A stretch of 64,000 nt of DNA, from the NCBI GenBank assembly GCA_041389495.1, contig JAWKRT010000002.1, forward strand, positions 1,067,758 through 1,131,757. The letters run 5' to 3'. The notes under the pieces are model-generated. The model saw only the letters and a program-made list of their open reading frames with translations, was not told the DNA's origin and ran no database searches. Within the stretch, counting starts at the first letter, position 1. Each line of letters begins with the position of its first letter. Position numbers and translations under genes: made by a program. Positions 5,033-17,210 of this stretch are shown in pieces. The DNA is from Myxococcota bacterium. GTDB taxonomy: Bacteria; Myxococcota_A; UBA9160; UBA4427.

Positions 5033-6361
5033 CTAGCGTCCGATGCGGGCGAGCCAGGCCTCGCGGCGGCCGTCGGGCGCGACCGCATCGCCCGCGATCG
5101 CGCGGCCGTCGTCGGAGATCGCCGTCGCGCGCAGCAGGTGGAGCCCGCCGAGGTCGACCCCGTGCTCGCGCTCGAGCCACGCGGCGACGTCGACGGCGCG
5201 CTCCCGCGCGCTGCCGACGTCGAGCCAGACGACCGCCGCGGTGGAGCGCGCCACGCCGGCGCTCGCGCGTGCCTCCGCGCCGCTCTCGTCCGCGCCGCTC
5301 TCCTCCGCGTCGCTCTCTTCCGCGCCGGCGCTCGCGCGCGCGGCGCGCTCGCCGACGGCGATGCGGCCGTCGCCCGACACCGCGCGTGCGCGCGACGCGT
5401 CGCCCTCCGCCCCCGCGAGGCGCGCGAGCGCGCGCAGGCCGCGCTCGCGCGTCCATGCGAAGGCGCGTTCTCCGCGCGCGTCGGTCGCGACGCCGACGAT
5501 CGTGCGCCCGTCGGCCGAGATCGCGAGCGCGCCGCTCGCGAACGCGCCGCCGGGCAGGTCGCCGAGGCCCTCCATGCCGCTCTCCGCGGTGAAGCGGAAG
5601 GCCTCGGGGCCGCGCGCCGACGCGCTCTGGCCGACGACGATCGCGCCGTCCGCCGAGACCGCGCGCGCCTCGCCGCCGGGGAGCCCGCCCGGGAGCTCGC
5701 CGAGATCCTGCATGCCGCCGTCGCGCGTCCAGCGCCACGGTCGCGACCACGCGCGCGCGCCGCGCAGCGTCTGACCGGCGCCGACCACGACGCTTCCGTC
5801 GGCCGACACGTCGCGCGCGCCGTTCGCGAACAGGCCGGACGCGAGATCGCCGAGCCCGTCCATGCCGTCCTCGCGCGTCCAGCGGAAGGCCTCGGTGCCG
5901 GCGCCCGACTGCCCGGTTCCCACGACGACGTCGCCGCGCGCGGACACGGCCGCGGCGCGGCTGCGGAGCGCGCCGCCGCGGAGGTCGCCGAGCGCCTCGA
6001 GCCCGCGCTCGCGCGCGAAGCGGAACGCCGCGGTGCGTCCTTCGTCGTCGACGACGGACGCGCCGACGACGACGTCGCCGTCCGCCGAGAGGCCCGTCGC
6101 CTCGCTCGCGAACGCGCCGCCGGGCAGGTCGCCGAGCGTCGCGAACGCAGCCGTCGGCGCGCGAGCGTCGCGCGCGGCCGCGGGCTCGCCCGCCGGCGCG
6201 CGTGCGCCGGCGGCGGCCGCGGGCTCGGCGGCCGTCGCGTTCGCGCCGAGCGCGAGCCCGGCCGCGCCGAGCGCCAGGGCGGCCGCGATGCCGCTGGCGC
6301 GCGCGGCGCCGCGGGCGCGCCGCGCGCGGCGCGTGCGCGCGCGCGAGCGCGCGCGGGCCGC
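5033..6361 (-). CDS. Secreted HAF-repeat (LGDLPGG...SADG..VVG) beta-propeller protein; no in-frame canonical start codon
   Basis: Frame is open from 6361 to the stop at 5033 with ~7 repeats such as LGDLPGGAFASEATGLSADGDVVVG. Signal-like R-rich/hydrophobic N-terminus (ASGIAAALALGAAGLALGANATA). No ATG/GTG/TTG between 6361 and 5948, so the ORF-track start at 5947 is internal. Confidence 0.75.
   Translation of the reverse strand, partial: AARARSRARTRRARRARGAARASGIAAALALGAAGLALGANATAAEPAAAAGARAPAGEPAAARDARAPTAAFATLGDLPGGAFASEATGLSADGDVVVGASVVDDEGRTAAFRFARERGLEALGDLRGGALRSRAAAVSARGDVVVGTGQSGAGTEAFRWTREDGMDGLGDLASGLFANGARDVSADGSVVVGAGQTLRGARAWSRPWRWTRDGGMQDLGELPGGLPGGEARAVSADGAIVVGQSASARGPEAFRFTAESGMEGLGDLPGGAFASGALAISADGRTIVGVATDARGERAFAWTRERGLRALARLAGAEGDASRARAVSGDGRIAVGERAARASAGAEESDAEESGADESGAEARASAGVARSTAAVVWLDVGSARERAVDVAAWLEREHGVDLGGLHLLRATAISDDGRAIAGDAVAPDGRREAWLARIGR
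5281..5325. repeat. 3 x 15-bp tandem repeat inside the HAF gene (encodes AEES/ADES units)
   Basis: cgctctcgtccgcgc / cgctctcctccgcgt / cgctctcttccgcgc read directly. Confidence 0.85.
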
Positions 6362-7033
6362 CTAACGAGCACGGCCGCGCTCTTCGACCTCGCGGAAGTC
6401 GACGCGGATGAAGAGCGCGTTCGCCTCGGCGGTGAGGGTGTCGCCCGCGTGGCACGTGGCGCGCGCGCGCACGTGGCGCGCGCCGTCGTCGACGATCCAG
6501 GCGCGCAGCACGAGGTCGGTCTCGACCGGCGTGATGTTGCGGTAGACGACGTCGAGCTTCGCGGTGACGCCGATCGGGGGCGCGAGCATCTGCGCGCCGC
6601 CGAGGAGATCGTCGAAGAGCCCGGCGACGACGCCGCCGTGCACGCCGTGCGGCGGGCCTTCGTAGCGGCGCGCGACGCGCACGCGGCCGACGAGCTGCGC
6701 GCCGTCCTCCGACAGCGCGACGCGCATCGGGGGTGCGAGCGGATTGAGGCGCCCTCGGAAGGGGCTCATCTGCTCGTAGTGGAGCTTCGCGCCCGCGCGC
6801 TCGGGCGCCTCGGCGTCGACGTCGTACCAGCGCTCGCGCACGGGCCCGTCGAGCAGGCTCGCGAGCTCGCTCGCGAGCGCGTGGGCGCGCGCGAGCGTCG
6901 CGTCGTCGACGGCGCGGCTCGTCGCGCGCTCGAGCACCTCGCGGAGCGCGTCGGCGAGCGCGCGCTCGCGCGCGTCGGCGTCGTCGGCTTCGGGCGAGGG
7001 GAGCGGCGCGCGCTCGTCGGGCCGCGGGCTCAC
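6362..7033 (-). CDS. PaaI/hotdog-fold thioesterase
   Basis: Start reassigned to GTG 7033 (RBS gaggag). YEGPPHGVHGGVVAGLFDDLLG hotdog motif. Confidence 0.88.
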   Translation of the reverse strand: MSPRPDERAPLPSPEADDADARERALADALREVLERATSRAVDDATLARAHALASELASLLDGPVRERWYDVDAEAPERAGAKLHYEQMSPFRGRLNPLAPPMRVALSEDGAQLVGRVRVARRYEGPPHGVHGGVVAGLFDDLLGGAQMLAPPIGVTAKLDVVYRNITPVETDLVLRAWIVDDGARHVRARATCHAGDTLTAEANALFIRVDFREVEERGRAR

Positions 7034-7274
7034 GTGCGCTGCACTCCTCGGGGCTCCTCGCTCGGTCGCGCCGTCGCGTGCGGATGCGTCGGGCCGCGCG
7101 TGCGAGCGCGGGTGGCTCGCGTGCGCGCTCCCTCGCGGGCTCGTTCGCGCTCGGCGGCGCGCCGCTCGCGCGGGAGGTCGCATGGTACGATGCGCGCTCG
7201 CGGGTTTCGTGCGCGCCGAGCGCGCCGAGCGCGTCGCGGCGAGCGCGCCGCGCACCTGCCGGCGGAGGCGACCG

Positions 7275-8813
7275 ATGACCGACGACTCCTCGCCGCGTTC
7301 CCCTTCCGAGCCGACTCCCGCGCCGCCCCCGACGGCCGGCCGGCGCGTTCCGGGCGCACTCGTCGCGCTCGCGTGGGCCGCGTGCGTGGCGGCCGCCTGG
7401 GCGGGCCCGGGCGAGTACTGGGCCGCGCGCTTCGAGGGCATCGACCCGGCGCGCATTCCGTACGGAGGCATCTTCGGGTTCGCGGGCGCGCTGCTCGTCG
7501 CGCTCGCCATCACGCCGCTGTGGGTTCGCGATCGGGTCGCGGCGGACGGTGCGCCGGCCTCGCCGCGCCGGCGCCTCTTCGTCTTCGCGGGCGGCGTCGC
7601 GGCGGGCCTCGTCGCCTCGGCGCTCGGCGCGTTCGCGCGCGTCTTCGGCTGGTGGACGGTGAGCCGGCCCGTGACCGAGGGCGTGCCCGTGCGGCGCACC
7701 GCGAAGGAGCGCCTGCCCGAGTGGCGCGACGCGCACATCGCCGCCCATCGACCGCTCGGCCGCACGGGCTTCGCCGTCTCCGACATCGCGCTCGGCTCGG
7801 GCGCGCTCGCGTACTCGCCCGTCGGCGCCGCGATCGCCCGCGCGGCGATCGAGCGCGGCGTCAACTACTTCGACACGGCGCCCGACTACGCGGCGACCGG
7901 GACGGAGACGCTGCTCGGCCAGGCGATCGCCGGCCGCCGCGACCGCATGTTCCTCGCGACCAAGTTCTGCACGGGGCAGGGCCACCTGCCGGCGGGCTCG
8001 AGCGTCGCCGACTACGTGCGCGTCGTGGAGGAGAGCCTCGGCCGGCTGCGCACCGACTACGTCGACCTCGTGCACGTGCACGCCTGCGACAGCATCGAGC
8101 GCCTCATGGACCCGAACGCGCACGAGGCGTTCGACCGGCTGCGCGAGCAGGGCAAGGCGCGCTTCCTCGGCTTCTCGAGCCACACGCCGAACCTCGTGGC
8201 CGTCGCGAACCGCGCGATCGAGAGCGGCCGCTTCGCCGTCATGATGCTCGCCTATCACTTCGGCGGCTGGAGCGAGCTCGGCTCGGTGATCGACCGCGCG
8301 CACGCGGCGGGCATGGGCGTCGTCGCGATGAAGACGCTCAAGGGCGCGAAGCACCGCGGGATGGAGGAGTTCGTCGGTCGCCGCGGCGCGTACTCGCAGG
8401 CGGCCTTCCGGTGGGTGCTCTCGAACCCGAGCGTGAGCTGCCTCGTCGCCTCCTTCTACGACCCGCAGCACGTCGACGAATACATCCACGCGTCGGGCAA
8501 GCCGCTGCGCGACGACGACGTCGCCCTGCTCGAGGAGTACGACCGCGCGATCGCGGGGACGCACTGCCTCGCGCACTGCGGCGCGTGCCTCGACCGCTGC
8601 CCGGAGGGCCTGCGCATCGACGACGTGCTGCGCCACCGCATGTACTTCGAGGACTACGGCACGCAGAAGCGCGCGATGCAGGACTACGCGCGCCTCGAGA
8701 AGCGGGCCGACGTGTGCATCGGCTGCAGCGCGCCGTGCGCGGGCGCGTGCCCGTTCGGCATCGCCATCCAGGAGCGCGCGATCGAGGCGCACCGGCTGCT
8801 GACGCTCGCGTAG
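7275..8813 (+). CDS. Aldo/keto reductase with C-terminal ferredoxin-type Fe-S motifs and N-terminal TM segments
   Basis: ATG 7275 with RBS ggagg. AKR motifs GVNYFDTAPDY, LATK, SLGRLRTDYVDLVHVH. Cys motifs CLAHCGACLDRCP and CIGCSAPCAGACP. Three hydrophobic segments within the first ~125 aa. Confidence 0.9.
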   Translation: MTDDSSPRSPSEPTPAPPPTAGRRVPGALVALAWAACVAAAWAGPGEYWAARFEGIDPARIPYGGIFGFAGALLVALAITPLWVRDRVAADGAPASPRRRLFVFAGGVAAGLVASALGAFARVFGWWTVSRPVTEGVPVRRTAKERLPEWRDAHIAAHRPLGRTGFAVSDIALGSGALAYSPVGAAIARAAIERGVNYFDTAPDYAATGTETLLGQAIAGRRDRMFLATKFCTGQGHLPAGSSVADYVRVVEESLGRLRTDYVDLVHVHACDSIERLMDPNAHEAFDRLREQGKARFLGFSSHTPNLVAVANRAIESGRFAVMMLAYHFGGWSELGSVIDRAHAAGMGVVAMKTLKGAKHRGMEEFVGRRGAYSQAAFRWVLSNPSVSCLVASFYDPQHVDEYIHASGKPLRDDDVALLEEYDRAIAGTHCLAHCGACLDRCPEGLRIDDVLRHRMYFEDYGTQKRAMQDYARLEKRADVCIGCSAPCAGACPFGIAIQERAIEAHRLLTLA

Positions 8814-8895: not shown

Positions 8896-11800
8896 ATGCG
8901 CGCGCGCCCGCCTGCCGCCGTTCCCGTCCCCGCGCGCGCGGTGCGCGCCGCCCTCCTGTGCGCAGTCGCCTCGCTGCTGCTCGTCGCCGCCGCCGGCTGC
9001 GCGCCCGAGCGCGACGACGCGCCGGCGCCCGCTCCGACGAGCGGCGACGCCGCGCTCGCGACGCCCGCGCGCGAGCGCGTGCTCGTCTTCGCCGGCGGCG
9101 ACGGCACCGTGCACGGCGCGACGCGCGCCGTCGCCGACGAGGTCGCCGCGGTCGCGTCCGAGGCGGGGCTGCGCGCGGAGGTCGCGACGGACGCCGACGC
9201 GCTCGCGGGCGACGCGCTCGCCGACGCGCGCCTGCTCGCGCTCGTGCACACGTCGGGCGCGAGCTGGGACGCGGCGCTGCGCACGGACGTCCGGCGCTTC
9301 GTCCAGGCCGGCGGCGGCGTCGTGCTCGTGCACCCGACGCTCGCCTACCGCAACGACTGGGGGTGGATGCGTCGCCTCGCGGGCACGACGCGCGCGATGC
9401 ACGGGCCCGAGCGCGTGCGCGACGTGGGCACGCGGGCCGTCGACTCGGGCTGGCACGCGGTCGGCCCGCTGCTCGCCGGGAGCGCGGTCGAGGTCGTCGA
9501 CCGCGCCGGCGCGCCGCTCGCGTGGCGCCGCACGGTCGAGGGCGCGCGCGTCTTCGCGACCGACTTCGGGCACGACGCGGCGTCGCTCGCGCTCGCGCCG
9601 GCGCGCGACGCGCTGCGCAACGGGATCGTCTGGGCGGCGGGCGACGGCGCGCCGCTCGACTTCGCGCGCGCGATGCCGCGCGCGGGCTCGCTCGCGAAGG
9701 AGGTGCTCGCCGGGAACGCGCGCGAGCCGATCGCGCTCGCGCTGCTGCCGGGCGGCGGCGCGATCGTCACGCAGCGCCGCGGCGATCTCGCGTCCTGGAT
9801 GCCGGGCGAATCCGAGCTGCGCGCGGCCGGGCACGTCGATGTCGATGCGGCCTACGAGTACGGGCTGCTCGGCATCGCGCTCGATCGGTCGTTCCCGGAG
9901 ACGGGCTGGCTGTACGTGCTCGCGACGAAGCCGCGCGACGGCGCGTCGCCGCGCCGCCACCGCGTCGCGCGCTTCGACTGGGACGCGCAGGCGCGCGCGA
10001 TCGACCCCGCGAGCGAGCGCGTGCTGCTCGAGATCCCGCTCGACGAGGCGGGCGCCATCCACGCGGGCGGTGCGCTCGCGATGGACGGAGACGGCCTGCT
10101 GTGGATCGCGACCGGCGACGACACGCAGCCTTCGGGCTCGGACGGCTACGCGCCGCTCGACTTCTCGCCGGGCCGCGAGCGCTTCGACGCCGCGCGCACG
10201 GCGGGGAGCGCGGGCGACCTGCGCGGCAAGCTGCTGCGCATCCGCCCGGAGCGCGACGGCACGTACTCGATCCCCGACGGCAACCTGTTCGCAGCGGGCG
10301 CGCGCGCGAACGCCGGCGCGGCCGCGCGCGCGAACGGCGCGGACGCGGGCGGCGACGCGCCGGGCGGCCGGCCCGAGATCTTCGCGATGGGCCTGCGCAA
10401 CCCGTTCACGCTCGCCCTCGACGCGGCCGGGCGCGCCGTGTTCGTCGGCGAGCCCGGCCCCGACGCGTCGCGCGACGACGCCGTGCGCGGGCCGCGCGGC
10501 TACGACGAGATCGAGCGCGTCGACGCGCCCGGGAACTTCGGCTGGCCCTTCTTCGGCGGCGACGGCAGCGCGTACGGTCCGGCGAAGCAGCCCGCCGAGG
10601 CGCCGCGCAACGCGTCGCCGCACGCCGCGGGGAGCCGCGCGCTGCCGCCCGCGCGCGCCGCGTGGCTCGCCTATCCCTACGCGTGGTCCGCGGACTACCC
10701 CGAGCTCGGGCGCGGCGGGCGCAGCGTCTTCGTCGGCGGCGTCGTCGACGACGCGGTGCGCGGCGGGCGGCGCCTGCTCGTCGGCGACTTCATGCGCGAG
10801 TCGCTGCACTGGGTCGCGATCGACGAAGGCGGCGCGGCGGCGCGCATCGAACCCGTCGCGCCCGGCGTCGCGTGGAGCTCGCCCGTCGGCGCGGCGATCG
10901 GCGCCGACGGCGCGATCTACGTGCTCGAGTACGGGACGGGGTGGTACAGCGAGAACACGGACGCGCAGCTCGCGCGGCTCGTCCCGCGCCCGGACGCGGG
11001 CGCGCCGGACGACGCCCGCGCGGCGCCCGATGCGCGCGCGTCGCGCGCCGGCGGCGGCGCCCTCGAGCGCTGGATCGCGCTCGCGGGGAGCGCGTCGTTC
11101 CACCGCGACGGCGCGCTCGCGTGGCGCTTCGCGGGCGAGGCGGGCGACGCCGCGCGCGCGCGCGTGCGCGTTCGCTATGTCGAGGAGCGCGGCGACGCGC
11201 GCGCCGCCGAGGCGCTCGAGGCGCACGGCTGCGCGAGCTGTCACGTCGCGCTCGCCGCGGGCGAGGCCGGCCCGGGCGCGCCGCCCGGCGTCGACGCCCT
11301 GCGCGCTCGCTATGCGGCCCCGACCGATGCCGTGCTCGAGGCGCTCGCCGACAAGGTCGAGCGCGGCGGTGCGGGGAGCTTCGGCGAGGTGCCGATGCCG
11401 CCGCAGACGGGCATCGACCGCGCGACGCTGCGGCGCATGCTGGCCCACTGGCTCGCGCCGCGCGCGGCGCCGGCGGTGCACGAGGCCGCGGCGAGCGGCT
11501 CGCTCGCGCTGCGCGAGCACGCCGCGCACGTCGTCGACACGCGCGTCGGCCCGCTCGTGCGCGGCGGCTACCGCGTGAGCGTCGAGGTCGACGGCACCGA
11601 GCGCGCGTCGCGCCTCGTGCGCGCGCTCCGCTTCCCCGCCGACGAGCACGATGCCGCCGCGGGCGTGCAGCTCGCGCCGGCGGGGGGCGGCGTCGACGCG
11701 GTGGTCGCGGTGGAGGAGGGCGCGTGGCTGCGCTTCGACGCCGTCGACCTGCGCGGCGTCGCGTCGATCGACGTGCTCGTCGCGGGCGTCGCGTCGGCCT

Positions 11801-12048
11801 CGGGCGCGCGGGTGGAGCTGCGCGTCGGCGCGCCCGACGGCGCGCCGCTCGGCGCGCCGCGCGACGTCGACCTGCGGCGCGCGCGGACGGCGCGCGTCGC
11901 GTTCCCGGTCGACGCGGCGGCGCTCCCGGGCTCGCCCTCGGCCGGGCGAGCACCCGGCGACCTCTACGTCGTCGTGCGGCGCGGGCGCGCGCGCGAGCTC
12001 GCCGGAATCCTCGGTATCGAGGTCGTGCCGCGCGCGCGCGCGCGTTGA
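8896..12048 (+). CDS. Multidomain lipoprotein: ThuA-like / glucose-sorbosone (PQQ) dehydrogenase propeller / cytochrome c / CBM6-like
   Basis: Lipobox-like AAAGC. GSDH motifs HAGGALAMDGDGLLWIATGD, GKLLRI, EIFAMGLRNPF, GNFGWP. Heme motif CASCH with downstream MPPQ. C-terminal GAWLRFDAVDL...VELRVGAPDG is CBM6-like. Confidence 0.8.
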   Translation: MRARPPAAVPVPARAVRAALLCAVASLLLVAAAGCAPERDDAPAPAPTSGDAALATPARERVLVFAGGDGTVHGATRAVADEVAAVASEAGLRAEVATDADALAGDALADARLLALVHTSGASWDAALRTDVRRFVQAGGGVVLVHPTLAYRNDWGWMRRLAGTTRAMHGPERVRDVGTRAVDSGWHAVGPLLAGSAVEVVDRAGAPLAWRRTVEGARVFATDFGHDAASLALAPARDALRNGIVWAAGDGAPLDFARAMPRAGSLAKEVLAGNAREPIALALLPGGGAIVTQRRGDLASWMPGESELRAAGHVDVDAAYEYGLLGIALDRSFPETGWLYVLATKPRDGASPRRHRVARFDWDAQARAIDPASERVLLEIPLDEAGAIHAGGALAMDGDGLLWIATGDDTQPSGSDGYAPLDFSPGRERFDAARTAGSAGDLRGKLLRIRPERDGTYSIPDGNLFAAGARANAGAAARANGADAGGDAPGGRPEIFAMGLRNPFTLALDAAGRAVFVGEPGPDASRDDAVRGPRGYDEIERVDAPGNFGWPFFGGDGSAYGPAKQPAEAPRNASPHAAGSRALPPARAAWLAYPYAWSADYPELGRGGRSVFVGGVVDDAVRGGRRLLVGDFMRESLHWVAIDEGGAAARIEPVAPGVAWSSPVGAAIGADGAIYVLEYGTGWYSENTDAQLARLVPRPDAGAPDDARAAPDARASRAGGGALERWIALAGSASFHRDGALAWRFAGEAGDAARARVRVRYVEERGDARAAEALEAHGCASCHVALAAGEAGPGAPPGVDALRARYAAPTDAVLEALADKVERGGAGSFGEVPMPPQTGIDRATLRRMLAHWLAPRAAPAVHEAAASGSLALREHAAHVVDTRVGPLVRGGYRVSVEVDGTERASRLVRALRFPADEHDAAAGVQLAPAGGGVDAVVAVEEGAWLRFDAVDLRGVASIDVLVAGVASASGARVELRVGAPDGAPLGAPRDVDLRRARTARVAFPVDAAALPGSPSAGRAPGDLYVVVRRGRARELAGILGIEVVPRARAR

Positions 12049-12125: not shown

Positions 12126-13388
12126 GTGGCAGGCAGGCTCGCGACGATGGCCGAGCGCTATCCGCGCCCCGACTGGGTGCGGCGCGTCAACGCGATGGGC
12201 GACTCGCTCGGAGGGCCCGTCGAGGGCGCGCGCCGGCTCGTCCCGATCGACCCGGATGCGATGGTGGAGGAAGCGGTGCGCTCGCTCGGCCTCGCCGGCG
12301 ACGCGCTCGCGGGCGACTTCGGCGACCCGGGCTGGCGCGCGCGCTTCGACGCGCTCGCGCGCGCCGTGCACGGGAGCCGCATGACGGTGGTCGGGCGCCT
12401 GATGACGCGCCAGGAGCTCTTCCGCGCACTGCGCACGCGGCTGCTGCAGAACCGCGCGTGGGCGCAGGATGCGGGCATCGCGAGCGAGCGCATCGAGGCG
12501 CCGCTCGTCGTCACGGGACCGGCGCGCTCGGGCACGACCATCCTGTTCGAGCTGCTCTGGCTCGACCCGGGCGTGCGCGCGCCTCTCGCGTGGGAGGCGC
12601 TGCATCCGCTGCCGATGCCCGAGGGCGACGCCGAGTCCGTGCGCGTGCGCGCGAGCGAGTGCGAGCAGGAGCTGTGGGCCGACGTGCAGCCCGAGTTCGC
12701 CGCCGTCCACGAGCTGCGGTCGGACCTTCCCGTCGAGTGCGTGACGCTCACCCAGCCGTGCTTCGCGGGCACGCACTGGCCGATGATCGGCCAGCTCGAG
12801 GGCTTCGCACTCGACCCGGTCGAGATGTACGCGTACGAGAAGCGCGCGCTCCAGCTGTTGCAGCGCGGGCGGCCGCCCGCGACGTGGCTGCTCAAGACGC
12901 CGGGCCACCTGATGACGATCGATCTCCTGCTCGGCACGTTCCCCGACGCGCGCGTGATCCAGACGCACCGCGACCCCGCGAAGACGATGCCGTCGACGGT
13001 CAGCACCACCGCGATGGTGATGTGGATGCGCTCGAACGACATCGATCTCGAGCTGCTCACGGGCGCGGTGCAGGCGGGCTTCTCGGCGGCGCTCAACGCC
13101 GTCGCGCAGCGGCGCGCGGAGGGGAGCCTCCCCGCCGCGCAGTTCGGCGACGTGCACTTCCAGGAGCTGCTGAAGGATCCGGTCGACGCGATCCGCCGCG
13201 CCTACGACCAGATCGGCCGGCCCTTCGCCGCCGAGCACGGCGAGCGCATCGTCGCCTATCTCGCGGAGAAGCCGAAGGGGAAGTTCGGCGTGCACCGCTA
13301 CGCGCCCGAGGACTGGGGCTTCACGGCGAAGGGGCTGCGCGACGACCTCGCGCCCTACCTCTCGCACTTCGGCGTCGCGCTCGAGTAG
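12126..13388 (+). CDS. Sulfotransferase family protein
   Basis: PAPS-binding TGPARSGTT, WLLKTPGH, QTHRDP. The start could alternatively be ATG 12147. Confidence 0.88.
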   Translation: MAGRLATMAERYPRPDWVRRVNAMGDSLGGPVEGARRLVPIDPDAMVEEAVRSLGLAGDALAGDFGDPGWRARFDALARAVHGSRMTVVGRLMTRQELFRALRTRLLQNRAWAQDAGIASERIEAPLVVTGPARSGTTILFELLWLDPGVRAPLAWEALHPLPMPEGDAESVRVRASECEQELWADVQPEFAAVHELRSDLPVECVTLTQPCFAGTHWPMIGQLEGFALDPVEMYAYEKRALQLLQRGRPPATWLLKTPGHLMTIDLLLGTFPDARVIQTHRDPAKTMPSTVSTTAMVMWMRSNDIDLELLTGAVQAGFSAALNAVAQRRAEGSLPAAQFGDVHFQELLKDPVDAIRRAYDQIGRPFAAEHGERIVAYLAEKPKGKFGVHRYAPEDWGFTAKGLRDDLAPYLSHFGVALE

Positions 13389-13428: not shown

Positions 13429-16404
13429 TCACCAGTACGTGCCGACGCGGATGCCGACCGCGTGCGTCGTGCGATCGGCGTCGAGGCCCACGTCGTAGGC
13501 CGCGCGCGCCTCGTAGCCGTTCGCCGTGCGCACCGTCCACGCGACGCCCGCGTTCGCGCCGTTGCGCTGCAGCTCGGCGCCGCGCACGAGCAGGCGCGCC
13601 GACGTCGTCTGGCCGACGAGGCGCGCGTCGATCGCGCGGTCGCGGTCGGCCACCTCCTGCTGCCACTCGCCGTAGACCTCGGGCAGGAGCCACACGTCGC
13701 GCTCGATCTCGAACGCGGCGCGCAGCCGCGTGCCGGCGCCGACGACGACGGAGTCGAGCCGCTCGCGCGCGACGTCGAGTGACGCCGCGCCCGCGCCGCT
13801 CTCCCGGAACGCGTCGCGCTCGACGTGCGCCCAGGCGACGGACGCGTAGGGCTCGACGAGCCACGCGTCGGTCGCGACGAGCTTCGCCGCGGCCTCGAGG
13901 CGCACGCCCGCGTCGAGCCCGTCGAACGCGGCGCTCGCGCGCCGCACGTCGGCGCCGACGGCGACGGTGCGATCGCTCTCCATCTTCGAGTACGCGACGC
14001 GTCCCGAGAGGCCGAGGCGCAGGCGCTCGCCGGCGACGCCCCCGTAGAGCGCGCCCGTGTACGTGTCCGCCGAGGTCGTGCCGGTGCGGTCGTCGAAGTC
14101 GACGTCCGCATTCGCGTAGCCGAACGCGGCGCCGAGGCGCGCGCTCGCGAGCGCGGCGCTCGCGCTCGCCGCGAACGGGCGCCACTCGGCGCCGAGCGCG
14201 CCGCCCGCGACCCGCGTGTCGAGCGCGCTCGCGCCGCGCCGGCCGTCGACGTCCGAGAACGAGGCGTACGGCTCGATCCACAGGTCGAAGGGCGCGTGTG
14301 CGACGGGCGCGTCGAGCAGCAGGCCCTCGCCGCGCGGGCGATCGGCGCCGAACGCGTCGCTCGCGTCGCGCAGCCGCCCGTGCAGCGTGCGCTCGAAGCG
14401 GCGCGCGTTCTCGAGCCGCACCGTCGCGAGCTGCGTCAGCGTCTCGCCCGCGAGCGACTCGAGCGCGCGCCGGAAGTTGCGCGTCGTGAGCGTCGAGAAG
14501 CCCTGGAAGAGCGAGAGCAGGTCGCCCGTCGCGGTCGGGAGCTCGGCGTCGATTGCCGCGGCGACGCTCGCCTGCGTCGGCGTCGCGGCGACGCTCGCAT
14601 AGCTCGCGGCGTTGCTGTTCACGACGAGCTGCACGGAGCCTGGGAGCGTCGTCATCGAGACGTCGAGCAGCGGGAAGTCGTCGGTGAACGCGAGCGCGCC
14701 CGTGATCGAGCCGGCGGTGAGCACGGTCGCCGTCTGGCTCGTGTACGTGCCGGGCGCGACGACGAGCTCGAGCGTGCCGCCGGTGAGGCTCGCGGCGTTC
14801 GCGACGGCGAGGCGGTCGTTCGCGCCCGCGCCCGGCGCGACCTCGATCTCGAGCACCGAGCCGCTCGCGAATGCGACGGCGTCGACCGCGAGCGTGTCGA
14901 TCGCCGCGCCCGAGGCGGCTCCCGGCGCGATGCGGCCGGCGTTCGCGACGGCGCCCGCGATCGCGCCGCCGCCGCCGAGCGTCGCCGGCGCGGCCACGCC
15001 CACGCCGCTCGTCGCGAGGCTCCCGCCGACGTCGAGCCTTCCGGCGAGCACGTTCGTCGCGCCCGTGTACGTGTGCGCGGCCGCGAGCGCGAGCGCGCCC
15101 GCGCCGCGCTTCTCGACGTCGCCCGCGCCCGAGACGGCGATCGACGCGATCGCGTCGGTCGGCTGGTCGAAGACGAGCCGCGCGCCCGACTGCACGAGCG
15201 TGTCGAGCGGGAGGCTCGCCGCGCGCACGACGAGGGCGCCGGCGTTCACGCGGGCCGTACCGCCCGCGAGCGCGCTCGCGTTGCCCGCGAGCGTGAGCGT
15301 CCCCGCGCCGTCCTTCTCGAAGTCGCCCGCGCCCGAGAGGGCGCGCGCGAACGTCGCGGTGGCGGGCTCGTCGATCACGAGCCTTCCGCCGGCGTCGATC
15401 TGCACGTCGCCCGCGATCGCGGCCGCCGCGCCGCGCAGCGTCGTCACGTTCCCGACCTGCGCGCGCGCGAACGAGTTCGCCGCGCCGTTCGGTGCGAGCC
15501 GCAGGTCGCCGCCGCCCGTCACGAGCAGAAGCCCGCTGCCGCCGATCGAGCCCGTGTAGGTCGGCGTGCCGATCGGGTTCATCTCGAGCGTGGCGCCCGA
15601 AGCGACGCTGATGGCGCCGCGGAACGCGCCGGGCAGGCCGGCGAGCGTGCCCGCGTTCACGGTCGTGCCGCCGCTGTACGTGTTGGCGCCGGCGAACACG
15701 AGCCGGTTGGTCGAGTTCTTCACGACGGCGCCCGTGCCGCTGATGATGCCGCCGTACGTGCCGTCGGCGGCGTCGGTGAAGAGGAGCTTCGTGTCGGTCG
15801 CGAGGTCGACGTTGCCGGGGAGGCTTCCGATCGCCACCTCGAGCTCGCCCGCCGTGACCTTCGTGCCGCCGGTGAACGCGTTGGCGCCGGTGAGCGTGAG
15901 GCGCGCGGTGCCGCGCTTGTCGAGCTTGCCCGCCGCGCCGGAGGCGGCGTCGCGGATCACCTGGTCGAACGTCTGCGCGCTGCGGACGTCGAGCACGAGC
16001 GTCGCGCCGCTCTCGAGCGCGATGTCGCCGTCCGCGACCTTCACGTCGATCAGCGTGAGCGTCTGGTTCGGGTCGACGCTCGCGACGAGCATGCCGTCGC
16101 CCATCAAGGTGAGCCCCGACGACGCGGTCGTGCCGTCGAGCGAGAGCGTCTGCGCGATGTCGGGGAGCGGCGTCAGGAGCTGGATGGCGCTCGTCGTGCC
16201 GAAGCCCTGGAAGACGATGCGGTCGCTGCCCGCGGCGGCGTTCGCGTCCGCGACGCCCTGGCGCAGGCTGCCCGCGCCGGCGTCGTCCATCGTCGTGACG
16301 GTGAAGTCGGCGGCGCCGGCGCCGGCGGCCGCGAGCGCGACGGCGGCCGCGAGCGCGCCTGCGATCGCGCGCGGGCGCGCCGCGCCGCGACGCGCGCTCC
16401 TCAC
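13429..16404 (-). CDS. Autotransporter with passenger-associated beta-strand repeats and C-terminal beta-barrel
   Basis: GTG 16404 overlaps the upstream stop (GTGA). Signal peptide, GAGSLRQ (CSLREA-like) N-domain, ~5 K.G.G.L.L.GAN.Y.GGT.V.AG.L repeats, and a barrel with alternating residues ending in W. Confidence 0.9.
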   Translation of the reverse strand: MRSARRGAARPRAIAGALAAAVALAAAGAGAADFTVTTMDDAGAGSLRQGVADANAAAGSDRIVFQGFGTTSAIQLLTPLPDIAQTLSLDGTTASSGLTLMGDGMLVASVDPNQTLTLIDVKVADGDIALESGATLVLDVRSAQTFDQVIRDAASGAAGKLDKRGTARLTLTGANAFTGGTKVTAGELEVAIGSLPGNVDLATDTKLLFTDAADGTYGGIISGTGAVVKNSTNRLVFAGANTYSGGTTVNAGTLAGLPGAFRGAISVASGATLEMNPIGTPTYTGSIGGSGLLLVTGGGDLRLAPNGAANSFARAQVGNVTTLRGAAAAIAGDVQIDAGGRLVIDEPATATFARALSGAGDFEKDGAGTLTLAGNASALAGGTARVNAGALVVRAASLPLDTLVQSGARLVFDQPTDAIASIAVSGAGDVEKRGAGALALAAAHTYTGATNVLAGRLDVGGSLATSGVGVAAPATLGGGGAIAGAVANAGRIAPGAASGAAIDTLAVDAVAFASGSVLEIEVAPGAGANDRLAVANAASLTGGTLELVVAPGTYTSQTATVLTAGSITGALAFTDDFPLLDVSMTTLPGSVQLVVNSNAASYASVAATPTQASVAAAIDAELPTATGDLLSLFQGFSTLTTRNFRRALESLAGETLTQLATVRLENARRFERTLHGRLRDASDAFGADRPRGEGLLLDAPVAHAPFDLWIEPYASFSDVDGRRGASALDTRVAGGALGAEWRPFAASASAALASARLGAAFGYANADVDFDDRTGTTSADTYTGALYGGVAGERLRLGLSGRVAYSKMESDRTVAVGADVRRASAAFDGLDAGVRLEAAAKLVATDAWLVEPYASVAWAHVERDAFRESGAGAASLDVARERLDSVVVGAGTRLRAAFEIERDVWLLPEVYGEWQQEVADRDRAIDARLVGQTTSARLLVRGAELQRNGANAGVAWTVRTANGYEARAAYDVGLDADRTTHAVGIRVGTYW

Positions 16405-17210
16405 TCGCTGCCCGGCCAGCGCGGCTTGCGCTTCTCGAAGAACGCGCGCGCGGCCTCCTCCGTCTCGCCCGAGCTCCCGGCCATGATCTGGTTGCGGTTC
16501 TCGAGCTGGATCGCCGCCTCGAGGTTCGGCACGTCGAGGTTGGCCCACATGACCTGCTTCGTCGCGAACAGGCCGAAGGGCGAGAAGTCGCAGAGCTCGT
16601 CGGCGAGCGCGAGCGCGTCGTCGACGACGCGGCCGTCGTCCGACAGACGCGTGACGACGCCCCAGCGCTCGGCCTCCTCGGCCGTGAACGGGCGCGCCGT
16701 CATGATCAGGTCGTGCGCGCGCGCGGCGCCCACGAGGCGCGGGAGCGTGTAGCTCACGCCGATGTCGCAGCCCGAGACGCCGACGCGGATGAACTGCACG
16801 CAGAGCTTCGCCGAGCGCGCGGCGATGCGGAGGTCGCAGCCGAGTGCGAGGCCGAGCCCGCCGCCGTAGGCCGCGCCGTTGATCGCCGCGATGACGGGCT
16901 GCTGGATGCGGCGCAGGTGCGGCACGAGGCTCGCCATGCGGTTCTGCGCGAGGAGGCCGGCGCGCGGGCCCGACACGCCCTCGACGATCGCGCCGGGGTT
17001 CGACTGGTCGACGAGGTCGAGGCCCGCGCAGAACGCGCGGCCCGCGCCCGTCAGCACGACGACGCGACAGCGGTTGTCGCGGTCGATCGCGTCGAGTGCG
17101 GCGTGCAGCTCCTCGACGAGCTCCCACGAGAGCGCGTTCAGGCGTTCGGGGCGCGCGAGGCGCAGCAGCGCGACCTGCGGCTTCGGGTACTCGAGCTCGA
17201 GCGTGTTCAC
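16401..17210 (-). CDS. Enoyl-CoA hydratase/isomerase (crotonase family)
   Basis: Start GTG 17210. AFCAGLDL, PVIAAINGAAYGGG, CDLRIA motifs. Confidence 0.92.
   Translation of the reverse strand: MNTLELEYPKPQVALLRLARPERLNALSWELVEELHAALDAIDRDNRCRVVVLTGAGRAFCAGLDLVDQSNPGAIVEGVSGPRAGLLAQNRMASLVPHLRRIQQPVIAAINGAAYGGGLGLALGCDLRIAARSAKLCVQFIRVGVSGCDIGVSYTLPRLVGAARAHDLIMTARPFTAEEAERWGVVTRLSDDGRVVDDALALADELCDFSPFGLFATKQVMWANLDVPNLEAAIQLENRNQIMAGSSGETEEAARAFFEKRKPRWPGSE

Follow-up and report, generated by a model that had tools for sequence, protein, structure and literature searches.

An aldo-keto reductase–ferredoxin family with a candidate internal Tat signal behind two membrane helices

Four families of membrane proteins have been described as dual substrates of the Sec and twin-arginine translocation (Tat) pathways: Rieske proteins (with three or five helices), Sco3746-type haem-molybdenum cofactor proteins (five), polyferredoxins (five) and YkuE-type phosphoesterases (four, N-out) (Tooke 2017, PMC5449189). 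A review of September 2026 defines 'class IV Tat substrates' and cites examples of only those four families (PMC13673990). Here, we examine a gene from a 64,000-nucleotide stretch of a Myxococcota genome (contig JAWKRT010000002.1 of assembly GCA_041389495.1; the whole stretch is hereafter called the window), which encodes a protein of 512 residues (P0001) with three predicted membrane helices, an aldo-keto reductase (AKR) barrel and a ferredoxin-like iron-sulphur (Fe-S) domain. Our computations support the view that this protein is probably co-inserted by Sec and Tat as an AKR-Fe-S enzyme facing the periplasm.

The actinobacterial Rieske proteins (S. coelicolor Sco2149 and M. tuberculosis QcrA; PMC3471235, PMC5449189) share with it the three helices, the cytoplasmic N-terminus and the twin-arginine pair in the cytoplasmic loop that leads into the last helix. 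They also share a weakly hydrophobic last helix followed by basic residues, and a C-terminal Fe-S domain on the outer face, a location which for the AKR-Fe-S protein is predicted. However, the Rieske domain is a 2Fe-2S fold unrelated to the AKR barrel and two-cluster ferredoxin-like domain found here, and the AKR-Fe-S hosts are Gram-negative (Myxococcota-like, Pseudomonadales, Binatia). The AKR-Fe-S protein, moreover, is not part of a bc1 complex and has a short loop (about 17 aa) between helices 2 and 3. The YkuE-type metallophosphoesterases (Tooke 2017) resemble the AKR-Fe-S proteins in another respect, as they too have soluble relatives with an N-terminal Tat signal and a subgroup with extra helices before a conserved RR, but they have four helices, an N-out topology, a different enzymatic activity and another metal cofactor. 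In the Sco3746-type proteins and the polytopic polyferredoxins (Tooke 2017), an internal Tat motif likewise precedes the last helix and the exported domain bears a cofactor, 4Fe-4S in the case of the polyferredoxins. Their five-helix membrane part, however, contains haem ligands or cytoplasmic clusters, whereas that of the AKR-Fe-S family has no conserved His, Cys or Met.

None of the four published families is an AKR, and judging from its sequences the AKR-Fe-S family would be new to the dual Sec-Tat class, the mechanism itself being known. The words aldo, keto and oxidoreductase are absent from the 2017 study (PMC5449189), and our full-text search of the literature found no paper on Tat-exported AKRs or on the function of COG1453.

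The membrane anchor and its twin-arginine motif

An earlier note, made from the letters of the window, had placed two hydrophobic helices at about aa 26-44 and 61-84, the string S-P-R-R-R-L-F-V at nt 7560-7583 and a third hydrophobic helix directly after it. Our analysis puts the first two helices at aa 27-44 and 64-84 and finds the third hydrophobic stretch at aa 101-121; the position given for the motif is exact (Table 1). The same note had proposed that the conservation of RRxF be checked in homologues. We searched 5.8 billion proteins, which yielded 3445 matches at E<=1e-10, and aligned the best 120 with MAFFT; nearly all of these are 485-520 aa long, with 94-100% query coverage. Indeed, both R98 and R99 are present in 119 of the 119 alignable sequences, and both are invariant in a cleaned set (n=110). 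Downstream of the pair, the best 120 homologues have Arg at +1 (106 sequences), Phe at +2 (110), Leu at +3 (117) and Gly at +5 (106), the F/L at +2/+3 being retained in at least 90% of the 110-120 homologues, which are 54-84% identical. The layout of three helices with an internal RR is common to more than 100 homologues. When full-length genes from named genomes were considered, a basic pair followed by an uncharged stretch was found in 58/58, and the hydrophobic 17-mers ahead of the RR in the 58 genome loci numbered two in 41 cases, three in 15 and one in 2.

The anchor is conserved beyond the arginines, at W34, G46, E54, G55, D57, T80, W83, R85, G111, R122, G125 and W126. R122 is Arg in 107 of the 120 homologues, and the loop-1 sequence of the window protein itself reads E54-G55-I-D57. 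The family alignment shows no conserved His, Cys or Met in the membrane part, and we therefore rejected haem or quinone ligands in the helices. The helix 1-2 module occurs in three divergent types, with 'EGID', with 'IGLDxSAFP' or with a CxxC in the loop before the RR, and the RR is kept in all three. In the CxxC subgroup of the helix-anchored clade (L048, L081, L089; P0122, P0128, P0138), the pair lies in the predicted cytoplasmic loop, from helix 2 to the RR, where it may bind a metal or have a redox function.

Table 1. Positions in the window of the AKR-Fe-S gene, its ribosome-binding site and the features of its product
Feature	Position (nt)	Strand	Basis
Shine-Dalgarno GGAGG	7264-7268	+	6 nt before ATG 7275; read from the sequence
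Coding sequence, 512 aa (P0001): three-helix membrane anchor, AKR barrel and Fe-S domain	7275-8813	+	full-length homologues cover 95-100% of the query
Predicted helix 1, aa 27-44; R23-R24 ahead of the helix, W34 invariant	7353-7406	+	hydropathy, AlphaFold2 helix 27-43, alignment
Predicted periplasmic loop, aa 45-63; E54-G55-x-D57 conserved, net negative, G55 invariant	7407-7463	+	alignment, charge
Predicted helix 2, aa 64-84; most hydrophobic of the three, T80 and W83 conserved	7464-7526	+	alignment, hydropathy, AlphaFold2
Predicted cytoplasmic loop, aa 85-100; net positive, ends in R98-R99-R100 (nt 7566-7574)	7527-7574	+	family mean charge +3.9; R98 and R99 invariant
Internal twin-arginine motif S96-P-R98-R99-R100-L-F-V103; family consensus G-x-G-R-R-R-F-L-x-G	7560-7583	+	sequence, alignment
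Predicted helix 3, aa 101-121, Gly/Ala-rich, then conserved R122; proposed Tat-dependent signal-anchor	7575-7640	+	alignment, hydropathy; AlphaFold2 single helix 97-135
AKR (alpha/beta)8 barrel, about aa 156-400; D200, Y205, K230 and H269 invariant	7740-8474	+	Pfam PF00248, PDB sequence matches, Foldseek, alignment
Eight-Cys ferredoxin-like region, C431/435/438/442-P and C481/484/488/492-P	8565-8750	+	all eight Cys invariant

An internal RR depends on the start codon being correctly called. The open reading frame spans 7182-8813 on the + strand, in a window of about 75% G+C. ATG 7275, which we took as the start, is credible because it has a GGAGG upstream at the spacing given in Table 1, because third-position GC (GC3) in its frame is 0.90-1.00 from about 7350 on, and because the nearest homologue, which is 84% identical, starts at the corresponding position. 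If the true protein began just before the RR, it would simply be an enzyme with a Tat signal, and the 'helices' ahead of it would lie in untranslated sequence. Such a mis-called start could be suspected from the Met which stands directly before GRRRFL in the family members P0016, P0025, P0114 and P0119, and from the few database entries that begin at that Met (P0133). However, the window gene has no in-frame ATG, GTG or TTG between codons 38 and 129, and the RR therefore cannot become an N-terminal signal by a shifted start. Furthermore, GC3 is 0.90-0.97 over the upstream part, the Shine-Dalgarno before ATG 7275 is strong, and the upstream part is kept as protein across phyla, with W34 and G55 invariant. 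The mis-called start is already contradicted by the sequence, and we give it next to no credence.

In the same P0016, P0025, P0114 and P0119, an internal start at the Met before GRRRFL could give rise to another isoform, whose Tat signal would be N-terminal; the window gene has no such codon. A scan for promoters and terminators found no element. Contigs from two metatranscriptome libraries cover 7197-7728 and 7258-7885, and so carry helices 1-2, the RR motif and the barrel start together; they lend weak support to the transcription of the gene, these libraries being assembled contigs in which transcript ends and levels are not readable and DNA carry-over is possible. A 9-nt deletion variant at window position 7208, which precedes ATG 7275 and falls within the longer frame from 7182, occurs in wastewater DNA contigs and in one contig of an RNA library.

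The catalytic part and its exported relatives

The AKR barrel and the two Cys clusters that had been noticed earlier behind helix 3 are both borne out, by a Pfam Aldo_ket_red (PF00248) match to the window protein at E 2e-28 and by the eight invariant Cys. The residues D200, Y205, K230 and H269 are invariant (n=110) and correspond in the alignment to the catalytic AKR tetrad of L-galactose dehydrogenase. The closest matches of known structure are ordinary soluble AKRs, namely L-galactose dehydrogenase (7ezi, E 2e-21) and PA4992 (4exa), the latter with a target-normalised TM-score (TMt) of 0.82 and a probability of 1.00 in Foldseek. These proteins and MtmW (6ow0) share with the window protein the barrel fold (TMt up to 0.82) and the D-Y-K-H tetrad, but they are cytoplasmic and have no membrane anchor, Tat motif or Fe-S domain. 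Sequence and fold searches of the PDB returned only plain AKR barrels and no AKR-Fe-S structure. The beta5-beta8 motifs of the barrel (GFSSH, MLAYH, MKTLKG and ISF...EY), which bear on a possible NAD(P)(H)-binding site, are unlike those of classical AKRs and partly like those of the NAD-binding L-galactose dehydrogenase.

The Fe-S domain displays the motifs C431x3C435x2C438x3C442-P and C481x2C484x3C488x3C492-P, whose spacing is non-classical, and judging from these motifs the region probably holds two [4Fe-4S] clusters. The Fer4_10 score of 24.6 bits is just under the cut-off of 25.5, and precomputed Fer4 matches are recorded for many homologues. The profile similarity of this domain to the Fe-S domains of CdhA, HdrC and DPD is weak, the best PDB profile match having an E of 0.014. 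When the domain was modelled in isolation with AlphaFold2 (AF2), the predicted local distance difference test (pLDDT) value was 51.7 and no confident fold was obtained.

Fe-S clusters are assembled in the cytoplasm, and an exported Fe-S domain must therefore travel folded. The AKRs, for their part, are as a rule enzymes of the cytoplasm that use NAD(P)H, and the earlier note had regarded their export as a paradox. This paradox is weaker than was stated. The glucose-fructose oxidoreductase (GFOR) of Zymomonas mobilis is, according to the passage of the review that cites Halbig 1999 (PMC13673990), exported by Tat with NADP already bound, and a periplasmic site therefore does not conflict with NAD(P) chemistry. 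GFOR is a nicotinamide-dependent oxidoreductase, as the AKR-Fe-S enzymes may also be, but it has a Rossmann-type Gfo/Idh/MocA fold, is soluble, carries a cleaved N-terminal signal and lacks an Fe-S domain.

Furthermore, within this clade export appears to be the rule and not the exception. A search of 1.84 billion cluster representatives (50% identity) with the AKR-Fe-S part alone (aa 150-512) gave 302 clusters at E<=1e-30, of which we sorted the best 150. A classical N-terminal Tat signal (for instance MNRRQFLRDSTLGGAALLGL) was found in 98 of them, 12 of which also have a lipobox-like Cys, and an internal RR after hydrophobic helices in 8. In one cluster the RR lies beyond residue 45 and is not preceded by a hydrophobic segment; 7 had 'no RR signal' by the scoring rule, with about five more evident Tat signals by eye; 6 have no N-terminal extension and 30 are fragments. 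The N-terminal Tat signals in about 100 of the 120 full-length relatives are the strongest evidence for the proposed Tat-dependent export of the AKR-Fe-S domain. On the sister protein P0136, the TAT_signal model TIGR01409 scored 17.3 bits against a cut-off of 16.7. The Tat-signal AKR-Fe-S proteins (385-440 aa; Acidobacteriota, Thermodesulfobacteriota, Binatota and others) are direct sister groups of the helix-anchored forms and have the same AKR and eight-Cys domains at 30-55% identity; they differ in their N-terminal Tat signal, of cleavable or lipoprotein type, which has no helices ahead of it. The source genome itself contains three paralogues of the helix-anchored type and a fourth AKR-Fe-S gene (G000:C1:678303-679427; L005:1468-2820, minus strand), 38% identical, whose product has an N-terminal Tat lipoprotein signal (DRRAFLRGSARVGLGSIALLSGC). 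A GMC-oxidoreductase-like open reading frame converges on this fourth paralogue.

How did the RR come to lie inside the protein? In domain trees, all helix-anchored forms fall into one clade, with a support of 99 in FastTree and a Shimodaira-Hasegawa-like approximate likelihood ratio test (SH-aLRT) value of 98 in IQ-TREE. The sister of this clade, P0123, carries its signal at the N-terminus, and the group as a whole branches from within the Tat-signal forms, such that a single change of state on the tree is enough to pass from the N-terminal to the internal layout. The internal RR and helix 3 would therefore descend from an ordinary Tat signal peptide. As read from these trees, the two-helix module is an addition made once, in front of the Tat signal peptide of an exported AKR-Fe-S enzyme, and the anchored family would have begun when an ordinary Tat-exported enzyme gained it. 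We found no support for a portable anchor cassette, as a profile of the two-helix module (A2) matched only AKR genes in five genomes. Two cluster representatives inside the helix-anchored clade, P0125 and P0126, start as called at the barrel (MKVYRR... and MAAHRR...), for which truncated calls or a secondary loss are possible.

Topology, assembly and electron flow

The charges of the family point to the orientation of the anchor. Mean net charges are +1.1 for the N-terminus, -0.7 for loop 1, +3.9 for loop 2 and +3.9 for the 39 residues past helix 3; by the positive-inside rule, the N-terminus would therefore lie inside, loop 1 outside, loop 2 inside and the catalytic domain outside. The AF2 model built with the family alignment (pLDDT 88.7, predicted TM-score 0.82) has helices at 27-43, 45-54 and 64-89 and one long helix at 97-135, followed by the barrel. 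The topology check that the earlier note had suggested, made here with hydropathy, charge and AF2 helices, thus predicts two helices before the RR and charges that fit an N-in, C-out arrangement.

It could be argued that the protein is an ordinary Sec/YidC membrane protein, with a catalytic domain left in the cytoplasm, where it would use cytoplasmic NAD(P)H, and arginines that act only as a positive-inside signal. The usual location of AKRs and the intact catalytic tetrad speak for this possibility. For it to hold, the N-terminus would have to lie outside, or helix 3 would have to stop short of crossing the membrane. However, an N-out topology would place the most positive loop in the periplasm, and a plain charge signal would tolerate Lys, whereas both Arg are invariant and the flanking G...F-L-x-G fits the Tat consensus. 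Moreover, about 100 sister clusters have the homologous domain behind a Tat or lipoprotein signal at the N-terminus. We therefore consider a cytoplasmic catalytic domain to be unlikely.

The dual Sec-Tat reading makes a further prediction, on the properties of helix 3. It is known from experiment that a weakly hydrophobic last helix with basic residues behind it leads Sec to release this helix to Tat (Tooke 2017, PMC5449189). We summed hydrophobicity with a Hessa-type scale over the best 19-residue window, and the family means were, on this approximate scale, +1.05 for helix 1, -0.14 for helix 2 and +2.61 for helix 3, which is thus the least hydrophobic. Compared sequence by sequence on the same approximate scale, helix 3 falls below helix 2 in hydrophobicity in 104 of 110 homologues, and below helix 1 in 86 of the 110. 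The basic residue behind helix 3 in the AKR-Fe-S family is R122.

Several points weigh against the proposed assembly. The values of the scale are approximate and take no account of position effects, and so are the sums. In the window protein itself they are +2.4 for helix 1, +0.3 for helix 2 and +1.2 for helix 3; its helix 3 is intermediate, and it therefore follows the family trend only in part. Its motif also reads RRRLF, as opposed to the RRRFL of the consensus. The topology itself rests on hydropathy, charge and predicted AF2 helices. Finally, at positions -3 and -1 ahead of R122, A/T/V and G/A are common, which is compatible with cleavage by signal peptidase.

This last point bears on another scenario, in which Tat exports the domain and signal peptidase cuts after helix 3, which would release a soluble periplasmic enzyme from a three-helix remnant, the extra helices serving only in targeting or regulation. 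The columns concerned, 119 and 121, fit the -3/-1 rule loosely, being mostly A/T/V and G/A, and the N-terminal Tat signals of many sister proteins look cleavable. Nevertheless, the -1 residue is L or V in about 20 of the 120 sequences, and the segment past helix 3 (R122, G125, W126 and T128-V129-T130) is strongly conserved. AF2 also gives 97-135 as one unbroken helix. Moreover, the invariant W34, G55 and W83 of the helix 1-2 module are hard to explain for a remnant that is to be discarded. Cleavage after helix 3 seems to us quite improbable.

The best-supported reading of the sequence is thus that of a polytopic inner-membrane oxidoreductase with an internal, uncleaved Tat signal, a candidate 'class IV' Tat substrate. 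The genome contains the necessary genes, with a tatC (E 3.6e-64) and two tatA/B genes. Dual Sec-Tat assembly is supported because the RR is invariant, two helices precede it, the charges are those of an N-in protein, the last helix is weak and followed by Arg, cofactor motifs and Tat genes are present, and sister proteins bear Tat signals. Every sequence-level prediction of the dual reading, which the earlier note had put forward, came out as expected wherever it could be tested.

By analogy with the actinobacterial Rieske proteins, Sec/YidC would insert helices 1 and 2 during translation and leave the N-terminus in the cytoplasm. Helix 3, which is weakly hydrophobic and lies between the RRR on the cytoplasmic side and Arg122 on the far side, would not be integrated by Sec, and the AKR barrel and the two-cluster Fe-S domain would fold and load their cofactors in the cytoplasm. 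After export by Tat, helix 3 would stay behind as a membrane anchor, and the outcome would be an AKR-Fe-S enzyme tethered at the periplasmic face of the inner membrane. There, a carbonyl or alcohol substrate would probably be oxidised or reduced, the Fe-S clusters may pass electrons to, or receive them from, a carrier in the membrane or the periplasm, and any nicotinamide cofactor would have been exported pre-bound.

A more specific proposal is that the barrel works without turnover of free NAD(P)H and that its two Fe-S clusters carry the electrons on, with the use of the conserved three-helix anchor, either to the quinone pool or to a carrier in the periplasm. We regard this as a doubtful but conceivable extension. 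If it were true, the family would represent an unrecognised type of periplasm-facing respiratory dehydrogenase or reductase, with an AKR fold and Sec-Tat assembly.

Distribution, gene neighbourhood and significance

A close homologue (E<=1e-100) is present in 41 of 301 genomes sampled from the phylum. The gene is nearly universal in its own family (17 of 18 genomes, each with 1-3 copies) and is found in 6/6, 7/9 and 5/9 genomes of other families of the same order and in 2/10 of another family of the class, whereas about 240 sampled genomes of other classes of the phylum have no close homologue at this threshold. Outside the phylum, homologues come from metagenome-assembled genomes labelled Binatia, Pseudomonadales (OM182, Azotimanducaceae), Opitutales and others; among named records, those of Myxococcota match best. 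The stretch itself occurs in activated-sludge and wastewater metagenomes of six studies.

In 80 loci, in which open reading frames were called, clustered and compared with Pfam, no consistent gene-neighbourhood partner was found, and this also counts against our interpretation. Only lineage-specific neighbours were seen (short-chain dehydrogenase/reductase, acyl-CoA synthetase, major facilitator superfamily transporter, glyoxalase, dienelactone hydrolase, MaoC, NAD synthase and DHH), and the same clustering and Pfam comparison found no cytochrome or quinone-binding partner gene in these loci. In the window, a 1050-aa predicted lipoprotein with an LVAAAGC lipobox is encoded 83 nt downstream of the AKR gene (8896-12048, +) and combines ThuA, pyrroloquinoline quinone-type glucose/sorbosone dehydrogenase (GSDH) and CBM6 domains with a CASCH haem-c motif. 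We rejected this ThuA-GSDH-haem c lipoprotein as a partner, as it is not kept beside the AKR gene in other genomes.

The other neighbours are varied. The divergent gene at 6362-7102 (-) encodes a protein whose C-terminal part resembles a hotdog-fold thioesterase (GVHGGVVAGLFDD...), with no Pfam match at E<=0.001. A 304-aa protein with repeats G-D-L-x-G-G...A-x-A-V-S-A-D-G-x-x-V-V-G, which also has no Pfam match, is encoded at 5033-5947 (-). On the far side of the lipoprotein gene lie a sulfotransferase-family protein (12126-13388, +) and a 1232-aa autotransporter with PATR repeats and a beta-domain (13429-17127, -).

In conclusion, the AKR-Fe-S proteins would be a fifth dual Sec-Tat family, abundant and found in Gram-negative lineages. 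With three helices like the Rieske proteins, they would be an independent natural case on which to test the rule that the hand-over from Sec to Tat is caused by low hydrophobicity together with C-terminal charge. As the sister proteins keep the N-terminal signal, the step that created the internal one can be reconstructed. Beyond the anchored forms, our searches suggest that AKR-ferredoxin fusions exported by Tat make up a large and unstudied clade, with at least 302 clusters (50% identity) at E<=1e-30, and the chemistry of this exported clade is a larger question than the mechanism by which its members would be transported.

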